A stretch of 64,000 bases of DNA, taken from the IMG/VR virus record IMGVR_UViG_2880389630_000005; one strand, written 5' to 3'. How positions within the stretch are numbered: position 1 is the first letter of the stretch; each line of letters opens with the position of its first letter. Below, piece by piece: positions 44,411-46,962 of the stretch. Position numbers and translations under genes: made by a program. The notes beneath the pieces were generated by a model that saw nothing but the letters and a program-made list of their open reading frames with translations, made no database searches and was not told the origin of the DNA. The DNA is from a virus. Lineage: Duplodnaviria; Heunggongvirae; Uroviricota; Caudoviricetes.

Positions 44411-44884
44411 TTAGTGATGTTTTGGCTGCACCGCAACATACATTTCGATATCCCAGTACCCATCTTCCGCGCCATTGTTCAAGTAAACCTCGAAGCAGGG
44501 CTTTGGTAACATTTCATAAGCACTGTCCTGCAAGAGGCTATTAAAGAACTGATACCAGGGTTTAGCAAAATCATCACCGACTACACGAGCCACCGCCACC
44601 GCATACTGACCACCTGAAATTTCTGTCAGAATGACGCCCTCACTGTTTTCGGGGAGCGTAAAGTTATTCGGTACCGTCACGACGGTGTCGCAGCGTAATT
44701 TTTCGGCGGGTGTTTCATCTGGATTGTCGTAATAGACAGCAACCCACTCCTTCGGCACAATATTTTTGCTATCTATCCACATCATCAACTGCTCAAAACC
44801 TTTCTTTACCATCTGCTCCCACGGGCCAACAAGATGGAAACCTGCAACGGTACGTTTATCTTCCTGCTTAATCTCGTAGTTCAT
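44411..44884 (-). CDS. sbmC: DNA gyrase inhibitor SbmC (GyrI)
   Basis: 157 aa; [24 protein letters not shown]... matches SbmC. Confidence 0.9.
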
Positions 44885-44899
44885 GACGCCTCCACTAAC

Positions 44900-44919
44900 A
44901 CTGTTTTTATATACAGTAT
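44900..44919. promoter_or_regulatory. LexA (SOS) box upstream of sbmC
   Basis: ACTGTTTTTATATACAGTAT fits the CTGT-N8-ACAG consensus; sbmC is SOS-inducible. Confidence 0.75.
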
Positions 44920-45002: not shown

Positions 45003-46175
45003 TCAGGCCTTATGGTGGAAATAATCACTCAGGCGGGAAAACATGCTGCCTTCCCCGACAGATTCCAGGGTAACCAGCGGCCAGTGCGCCACCTGTTTAT
45101 CACGGTCGTAAAGTTCAATTTCCCCTACCCGCTGATGGGCGCTAATTGGCGCGGTGAGTTCTTTACCATCAAGGGTATATTTGGCTTTGATATGTGGAAT
45201 TTCGGCTTTCGGTAGCACCATCCAGAACTCTTGTTCCGTTCCCAGGGCGATATTTTCTTTATCACCATACCAGATGCGTTCCGTACCGACCTTTTTCCCA
45301 CGGTGCAAAATTTGCACCGTAGTAAAGTTTTGTTGCCCCCAACGCAGTAATTTTCTTGCCTCTTCCTCACGACCTTTTGCGCTGTCAGCCCCCATTACCA
45401 CTGCAATGAGGCGACGCTGCCCGTCTACAGCCGAAGCAATAAGATTAAACCCGGCACCAGAAGTATGGCCCGTTTTCAGGCCGTCAACATTCATGGTTTT
45501 ATCCCACAATAACCCGTTACGGTTTTGCTGGGTGATACCGTTCCAGGTGAGGCTTTTCTCACTGTACATATGATAAAACTCGGGCTCGCCGTGGATGATA
45601 GCGCGAGAAAGCACGGCTAAATCATAAGCCGAGCTATGCTGGCCAGGTGCATCCAGACCATGCACTGTTTCAAAATGCGTATCCTTGAGATGCAGCTTCT
45701 CGGCATAGTTGTTCATCATTTCAACAAACTGCCGTTGCCCACCGGCAATATAGTCAGCCAGAGCAACACAAGCGTCATTTCCGGAATCCACAATTAAACC
45801 ACGGCTTAAATCACGTACCGATACGCGATCGCCCTCTTTCAAAAACATCAGTGAAGAACCGACAAACACCGGATTATCTTTCGCCCACGCATCACGCCCC
45901 ACGGTGACAATATCGTCTGGCGTAATGCGATGACTATCGATAGCGCGATCCACGACATAGCCCGTCATCAGCTTTGTCAGGCTGGCGGGATTGCGCTGTT
46001 GATGCTCATTACCCGCGGTGAGAATCTGACCGGTGGTGTAATCCATCAATACCCAGGACCCGGCATGAATCTCTGGAGGCTGAGGTGAAAAAGGAATGTT
46101 TTCCGCCGCAAAACCAGACGATAAATTAAAAACGAACAAAGAAGCAGCAATAATAAGACGGCGTTTCAACAGCAA
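45003..46175 (-). CDS. dacD: D-alanyl-D-alanine carboxypeptidase DacD (PBP6b)
   Basis: ~388-390 aa; signal peptide; matches DacD from memory. Confidence 0.9.
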   Translation of the reverse strand: MLLKRRLIIAASLFVFNLSSGFAAENIPFSPQPPEIHAGSWVLMDYTTGQILTAGNEHQQRNPASLTKLMTGYVVDRAIDSHRITPDDIVTVGRDAWAKDNPVFVGSSLMFLKEGDRVSVRDLSRGLIVDSGNDACVALADYIAGGQRQFVEMMNNYAEKLHLKDTHFETVHGLDAPGQHSSAYDLAVLSRAIIHGEPEFYHMYSEKSLTWNGITQQNRNGLLWDKTMNVDGLKTGHTSGAGFNLIASAVDGQRRLIAVVMGADSAKGREEEARKLLRWGQQNFTTVQILHRGKKVGTERIWYGDKENIALGTEQEFWMVLPKAEIPHIKAKYTLDGKELTAPISAHQRVGEIELYDRDKQVAHWPLVTLESVGEGSMFSRLSDYFHHKA

Positions 46176-46377: not shown

Positions 46378-46425
46378 ATGATGAATGACGGTAAGCAACA
46401 ATCTACCTTTTTGTTTCACGATTAC
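46378..46425 (+). pseudogene. sbcB: sbcB (exonuclease I) 5' stump, truncated by P22-like prophage insertion
   Basis: Encodes MMNDGKQQSTFLFHDY (SbcB N-terminus from memory), then diverges and stops at 46438-46440. Confidence 0.8.
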
Positions 46426-46962
46426 GCGCAACACCCCTGAGAACCGCCATGAACAAGGGTTTCATGATTTGTGATTTTAGTTTGGTACGCAATTTGGTAC
46501 ACAACACAATTTTCACTTCAGCGGGTAGTCATCAAACTCACCATAACGAGCATCGTTGATGATGTATGTGATCACCACAAATATCACATCTGGACTAGTT
46601 CCGTCTTCATGCGCAGGTATTTGTTCACGCCTCCCTTTCTGCAAATCCTAAAGATGAGATTTTGGGGTTTTGGGATATCTTTTTATCCTCAGTTCTCTAT
46701 CCATTCTACAAAGCAGTAATGAACCATCACCGTGTGATAGTGAGGCATCCGCTACGTTAAGCGCAGAGAAATGATGCAGTGGTGGTCGGACTGGATTGAT
46801 GAAAAGGTGTAGCAACCAACATTGCTATATCTCAGATAGCACAAAGCCTTGCAATCCAGTGCAAAGCTTTGTGTGTCTCAGTTTTTATAAATTCTTAAGC
46901 AAGAATTATAGTTATAACTATTATGTAAATTTTATGATATATATTGTATTTAAATGCTGGTT

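Follow-up and report, generated by a model that had tools for sequence, protein, structure and literature searches.

In the window, the whole stretch of 64,000 nucleotides of DNA that was analysed, the segment between the attachment junction and the tailspike gene most probably consists of an attP arm followed by a humD relic, an IntS relic, a leftover terminator and a spacer. It would then be recombination debris rather than a new gene or RNA, and we put the probability of this reading at roughly 0.85. A P22-like prophage has entered the 5' end of sbcB by way of a tyrosine integrase of the 2851/Sf101 type, and the segment is its attR-proximal end. Only the first 85 bp or so of the segment (at most about 170 bp) are likely to be functional, as an att arm needed for excision. 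The debris past the arm would hitch-hike with the int/attP module. The features are as follows.

46378–46426, plus strand: 5' end of host sbcB, first 16 codons (MMNDGKQQSTFLFHDY), then interrupted by the prophage
46414–46426, no strand assigned: att core, 13 bp, TTTCACGATTACG, common to host sbcB and phage attP
46427–46512, no strand assigned: integrase-distal attP arm, that is, the phage arm of attR, recognised by homology with other sbcB-type phages
46481–46504, plus strand: two tandem 12-bp arm-type repeats, TTTGGTACGCAA and TTTGGTACACAA, candidate sites for the integrase N-terminal domain
46513–about 46768, minus strand: HumD (UmuD'-like, S24 family) pseudogene, from PGAP annotation and an NCBIfam match
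46759–46812, plus strand: 3'-terminal relic, last 17 codons, of an integrase gene of the IntS type (KplE1/HK620/Sf6)
46831–46886, plus strand: hairpin with T5 (stem-loop 46840–46873, extended stem 46831–46881, T5 46882–46886)
46886–46962, no strand assigned: spacer, 77 bp, 17% GC, part of the tailspike cassette, no ORF
46963–49044, minus strand: P22-type tailspike gene, 693 aa, which bounds the segment

The position of the prophage end was defined by the att core. In the window, sbcB begins at 46378 (plus strand) after yeeA, sbmC and dacD (45003–46175, minus strand), and the fused sbcB-phage reading frame ends at a TGA at 46438–46440. In the annotation of phage HK544 the core TTTCACGATTACG bears the label "attP, type 2851", and in Stx phage 1717 it is marked as the insertion duplication. 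It is also the published attP core of 2851 and Sf101, two phages with the 5' end of sbcB as their integration site (PMC4159516). A second copy was found at the opposite prophage junction in the isogenic E. coli S5 (L013 6165–6177), an identical short core thus being present in phage and host and at both prophage junctions. Since the core at 46414–46426 occurs at both junctions, the phage DNA begins at 46427, the phage/host boundary is 46426/46427, and the segment to be explained is 46427–46962. An earlier sequence-only reading had placed the start at 46441; the true start of the phage DNA lies 14 bp before that position. Its description of the segment as gene-poor was confirmed, because no intact gene is present in the roughly 520–540 bp that lead from the att junction to the stop codon of the tailspike gene at 46963.

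E. coli S5 is identical to the window across the region, and its opposite prophage end is located about 39.8 kb away. That end carries an AlpA-like gene, a tyrosine integrase gene read away from att, the second core and the remaining part of sbcB. Just left of the attP core, the phage has its own, diverged version of the 5' end of sbcB (ATGACAGACACAGATAAACAACCTACCTTCCTC..., L013 6132–6177). In the integrated prophage, this version supplies the N-terminus of a rebuilt sbcB (MTDTDKQPTFLFHDY|ETFG...); in E. coli S5 the rebuilt gene is annotated as an intact exonuclease I. The original sbcB promoter and the first 16 codons are orphaned at 46378–46440, where they encode a 20-aa peptide, MMNDGKQQSTFLFHDYAQHP.

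Homology of the arm with sbcB-type phages of different cargo extends to 46583–46594, inside the 3' end of humD. HK544, HK140 and APC_JM3.2 have only the integration module in common with the window and diverge after this point. The att module can therefore be no longer than about 170 bp. Within the arm, the tandem repeat unit at 46481–46504 reads TTTGGTACRCAA / TTTGGTAC. The motif TTTGGTACRCA is present in three copies upstream of int and in two copies in the arm of the window, all in the same orientation, and the three int-side copies all fall in the 214-bp interval that separates the core from the integrase start codon. This 3+2 split was seen in three independent attP sequences, namely those of HK544, Sf101 and the prophage itself (from attL). 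Repeated arm-type motifs outside the core are thus found on both arms. The shorter motif TGGTACRCA occurs four times in the 64-kb window against 0.94 expected, with two of the copies adjacent here, and both repeats at 46481–46504 are conserved in 12 of 13 variants. The IHF consensus WATCAANNNNTTR, which is a weak consensus, had no match in either arm of the reconstructed attP, nor had a relaxed form of it.

Five direct repeats spread over the two sides of a core form the classical arrangement of arm-type integrase sites. From this arrangement we infer that the integrase binds the repeats, and we propose them as candidate binding sites. With two repeats on this arm and three attL copies upstream of int, the N-terminal domain of the integrase would bridge the arms and the core during excision. 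The functional element present in the segment is the attR arm with its candidate arm-type sites.

The architecture of lambda attP, a core flanked by arm-type Int sites that include P'1–P'3, served as the basis for a comparison. As in lambda attP, five direct arm-type repeats are spread over both arms, and the tandem copies lie 55–78 bp from the core (cf. P'1–P'3). Unlike in lambda attP, the 3+2 split is oppositely assigned relative to int, and no match to the weak IHF consensus was recognisable. The attP of the window phage also differs from that of lambda in that int begins beside the site and points away from it.

The start of the 2851-type integrase gene (L013 4772–6004) is 214 bp from the core; the gene points away from the core and has the three arm-type repeats 9–53 bp upstream of its start codon (also L008 2259–2312; L004 2758–2811). 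This gene has the same layout as the intS module of KplE1 (CPS-53), HK620 and Sf6. In KplE1, transcription of intS runs away from att, and arm-type sites extend over the region upstream of the gene (PMC2951348). The position of the repeats over the int upstream region suggests that the integrase may repress its own gene, which has been shown for KplE1 intS. The window differs from KplE1, however, in that intS is only a relic and the working integrase is of the sbcB 2851 type with a different integration site.

The attP or attR sequences of 2851, Sf101, HK544, HK140 and mEp234 have the identical 13-bp core, a 91–99% identical arm and the same arm-type repeats as the window, and the integrases of this group are reported to be 99% identical to one another. 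We found no essential difference from the 2851/Sf101-type attP; the window has the attR half of it, next to another tailspike and lacking a cargo gene. The att region is of the published 2851/Sf101 type.

The next feature is the humD pseudogene. PGAP marks 46513–46764 (minus strand) as a pseudogene in genomes identical to the window. The conceptual translation matches positions 45–128 of the 129 positions of NCBIfam NF051876 (E=1.3e-26, 93.1 bits), which is below the curated cutoff of 120 bits, and no full-length uninterrupted ORF of about 129 aa is present. Codons 1–44 are missing, and an in-frame amber TAG is located at 46648–46650, a position that codes for Glu in the copy of Salmonella MG40. 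No CTGT-N8-ACAG with one mismatch or fewer, as expected for the LexA box of an SOS promoter, was found within 46427–46962. Intact HumD/UmuD' cargo genes (HK140, HK639 and E. coli sbcB prophages) occupy the same position beside attP in the same orientation; in HK140 and in one E. coli sbcB prophage (L020) an intact humD of 128–129 aa lies in the same place beside the same attP. The intact alleles have a perfect LexA box (TACTGTATA-N-TACAGTA), a ribosome-binding site and the N-terminus MGFPSPA. Unlike these genes, the copy in the window is truncated, interrupted by the amber codon and promoterless. In the Salmonella P22-like phages BTP1 and MG40, a full-length but frameshifted humD is located between a thrW-type attP and gtrA.

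The amber codon and the same 5' truncation are present in 13 of 13 sbcB-type variants. A 1-bp deletion at 46680 is found in 6 of the 13, and two variants have private indels. The humD copy in the window is dead and still decaying. It would represent an SOS-regulated UmuD'-like cargo gene from which the promoter and codons 1–44 have been lost and which carries an amber stop. The longest ORFs in the segment are 82 aa (plus strand) and 55 and 43 aa (minus strand). The sequence-only reading took these for short, low-complexity ORFs, which was a misreading: the two on the minus strand are the halves of the amber-split HumD-family pseudogene, and the 82-aa ORF is its antisense shadow. A literature search found no paper describing the humD relic. 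In E. coli AH21C082 (L012 875–2258), ISEc52 is inserted within the relic and splits the module.

Past the missing humD codons, the relic of the integrase gene reads KRREMMQWWSDWIDEKV, compared with ...KRREMMQWWADWIDEKVE at the C-terminus of IntS in KplE1/CPS-53 and ST131 argW prophages. The junction between this relic and humD codon ~45 is the same in every variant, which points to a single scar of illegitimate recombination. The scar would have been formed when an argW-type integration module was replaced by the sbcB-type one. In E. coli ET776 (L016, about 1850–1900), the int relic continues into the 3' end of a P22-type int and then into a thrW-like core remnant (GACCTTCGCATTACGAATT), after which an exo-alpha-sialidase gene follows. 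The extra int/thrW-like piece of ET776 is a further layer of att-module replacement.

About 20 bp past the stop codon of the IntS relic, a core stem-loop is formed by CACAAAGCCTTGCA-ATCCAG-TGCAAAGCTTTGTG (46840–46873). The plus-strand RNA folds with -22.1 kcal/mol (z=-3.9), and U5 directly follows the extended stem. A stable stem-loop with an immediate U-tract on the plus strand is what is expected of a Rho-independent terminator, and the hairpin is predicted to be one. It was found by folding; a scan with a simple, strict terminator pattern did not call it, the stem being bulged. The same hairpin follows the intS stop codon in the argW prophages of K-12 and of the ST131 strain 4993, and it would therefore most simply be the intrinsic terminator of intS. 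In Salmonella P22-like phages, it is located on the other side of humD, beside the thrW core. We infer that the hairpin and its T-run may still stop transcripts coming from the orphaned sbcB promoter before they enter the tailspike gene in antisense. Stem changes are uncompensated in several relatives, and the hairpin is not clearly under selection in this context. A patch of about 25 bp at 46808–46832 (GTAGCAACCAACATTGCTATATCTCAGATAG), between the stop codon of the int relic and the hairpin, is unlike that of all other variants (consensus GGAGTGAnCnACCTTAACAACTATCGAATAG); it lengthens the stem in the window, where the T-run then follows directly.

The 3' edge of the hairpin is the divergence point of all cargo and tailspike cassettes, which comprise three tailspike types, oacB, gtrA/gtrB, an acyltransferase and lambda-like/Stx side-tail-fibre regions. 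The hairpin is a module boundary, the place where cargo and tailspike cassettes are exchanged. The suggestion that serotype-conversion morons are carried at this position by relatives proved to be correct. In Sf101, oacB lies between the attP-arm/humD module and the tailspike. The hairpin is followed by gtrA/gtrB in E. coli MB10 and by an acyltransferase in BEN2908. An O-antigen acyltransferase gene (L020) and gtrABC (L022) are found divergent from intact humD, and BTP1 and MG40 carry gtrA/gtrC. In the segment itself, no ORF of the GtrA, GtrB, other Gtr or acyltransferase type was found, and BLAST matches end at 46885. The cargo slot is empty in the prophage of the window, the hairpin being directly followed by the AT-rich tail of the tailspike cassette.

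This tail is the only part of the segment to which the description AT-rich applies. The last 77 bp (46886–46962) have 16.9% GC, whereas 46427–46885 have 43.1%; the interval of the sequence-only reading has 38.7% overall and the prophage part of the window 46.4%. The spacer is identical or differs by 1 nt after the same tailspike at argW (strain 4993, L010) and at ybhB (strain 317, L011). At both of these att sites the order is hairpin, spacer and tailspike with no cargo, and the spacer directly follows the hairpin each time. The spacer thus travels with the tailspike across three integration sites. No significant structure was detected in it (fold z=-0.3), and its sole promoter-like match is at chance level. 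We favour the reading that the spacer is the 3' flank native to a tailspike cassette of low GC. A MAFFT alignment to Salmonella phages had hinted at the remnant of a LexA box in the spacer; this was rejected, the local-alignment score being below the shuffle mean and no CTGT-N8-ACAG occurring in the region. Similarity of the spacer to the humD promoter region likewise did not exceed chance.

Several other explanations have to be weighed against this account. The humD frame retains a codon-position signal: variable sites fall 6/5/18 on codon positions 1/2/3 in 8 sequences (46513–46764, p=0.0045), and pN/pS is 0.1–0.36 in these first 8 variants. The excess at third positions is unexpected for a long-dead gene, and recombination with intact alleles of the same locus explains it only loosely. 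The 13 variants compared are visibly mosaic. The closest intact HumD proteins, however, are just 75–79% identical to the conceptual translation, and simple gene conversion from living alleles is therefore not well supported; no intact HumD that is more than 79% identical and could have been a donor was found among 5.8 billion sequences. If the signal were taken as function, the remnant would still be expressed as a useful truncated UmuD'-like peptide or as two peptides. We see a very slim chance of this, because every one of the 13 variants has the amber codon, the first 44 residues and the LexA-box promoter are absent, the 1-bp deletion (6/13) and other private indels break the frame, no intact protein close to it could be found, and the bias weakens to 13/14/26 (p=0.052) when 13 sequences are used. 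Since the amber codon is universal and the frameshifts are multiple, the excess is not read as function; it is a weak residual signal. That the relic is not fully dead, either because selection in lysogens acts on a fragment of it or on an RNA that starts at the orphaned sbcB promoter and crosses it, or because it is homogenised by recombination with intact humD, seems to us highly improbable. For the 82-aa ORF (46471–46719, plus strand), annotations as a hypothetical protein in Sf101 (ORF17) and BTP1 (BTP1_017) speak in favour of a real gene. It has no family match in Pfam or NCBIfam, however, the 46680 deletion frameshifts it in 6 of 13 variants, its variation (16/5/5) is concentrated at its own first codon position, and it lies exactly antisense to the humD relic. 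This ORF is the antisense shadow of the relic, and there is next to no chance that it is a gene.

The sbcB promoter and the first 16 codons point into the segment, and a plausible plus-strand terminator is located at 46831–46886. A transcript of about 500 nt that starts at the orphaned promoter, crosses the humD relic in antisense and stops at the hairpin might on these grounds be a small regulatory RNA, as the sequence-only reading had considered. No evidence for a small RNA was obtained. A scan of the segment against Rfam 15 at E<=10 gave a single chance match (E=5, 19 bits against a gathering score of 49), no tRNA or tmRNA was found, and promoter-like sites in a pattern scan were no commoner than chance. 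Past the hairpin there is no conserved structure, and the hairpin variants are not compensatory. Such a transcript could moreover exist with no function, and we consider a regulatory RNA to be a distant prospect. The suggestion of a deletion remnant was right in that the segment is made of remnants, but what remains comes from humD and from an older integrase gene of the IntS type rather than from gtr or oac. It could still be argued that the spacer, or perhaps the whole segment, was left when a gtr/oac operon once present between the hairpin and the tailspike was deleted, and relatives with the same module do carry oacB, gtrA/gtrB or an acyltransferase exactly here. In shuffle tests, however, the spacer was not significantly similar to the gtr/oac flanks of MG40, K-12, Sf101, mEp234 and 1717, being no closer to moron flanks than chance (0.37–0.99 of the shuffles scored as high or higher). 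The cargo-free order of hairpin, spacer and tailspike at two other att sites also makes the spacer look native rather than a fresh deletion scar. We therefore regard such a deletion as unlikely and retain the reading of the segment as an att arm followed by layered debris.

The sequence-only reading would have been weakened by a lack of conservation; comparison with related phages showed that the segment is widely conserved. The stretch 46441–46885 is present at a coverage of at least 80% in 472 of 5,426 complete E. coli genomes (identity 91–100% across genomes and phage records) and in 21 phage records at 91–95% identity. These phage records span several virion types, from P22-like Sf101 and lambda-like mEp234 to the Stx phages 1717, 2851 and WGPS. 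The conservation is attributed to linkage to the int/attP module and not to a new function.

The pseudogene has already been annotated by PGAP, and the proposed arm-type sites and the reading as layered scars are small additions. Beyond annotation hygiene, the segment is of little importance. The prophage boundary is fixed at 46426/46427, the "hypothetical protein" annotations of Sf101 ORF17 and BTP1_017 correspond to the antisense shadow of the pseudogene, and the 44-aa "error-prone repair protein" of mEp234 to a fragment of it. The candidate arm-type sites belong to the widespread sbcB-type integrase (that of Stx2c phage 2851) and may be of use in engineering or tracking prophages. The segment also provides an example of the swapping of integration modules and tailspike/cargo cassettes at a shared hairpin "linker", with layered scars.

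Two further observations concern the surroundings. A perfect LexA-box-like sequence, CTGTTTTTATATACAG, is located at 44901–44916, just upstream of sbmC (44411–44884, minus strand); sbmC is an SOS gene, which fits this sequence. On the other side, an antirepressor (Ant-like) ORF at 49254–50186 lies immediately upstream of the tailspike gene, as in the immI region of P22, and related prophages with the same tailspike have Arc in place of the Ant-like ORF.
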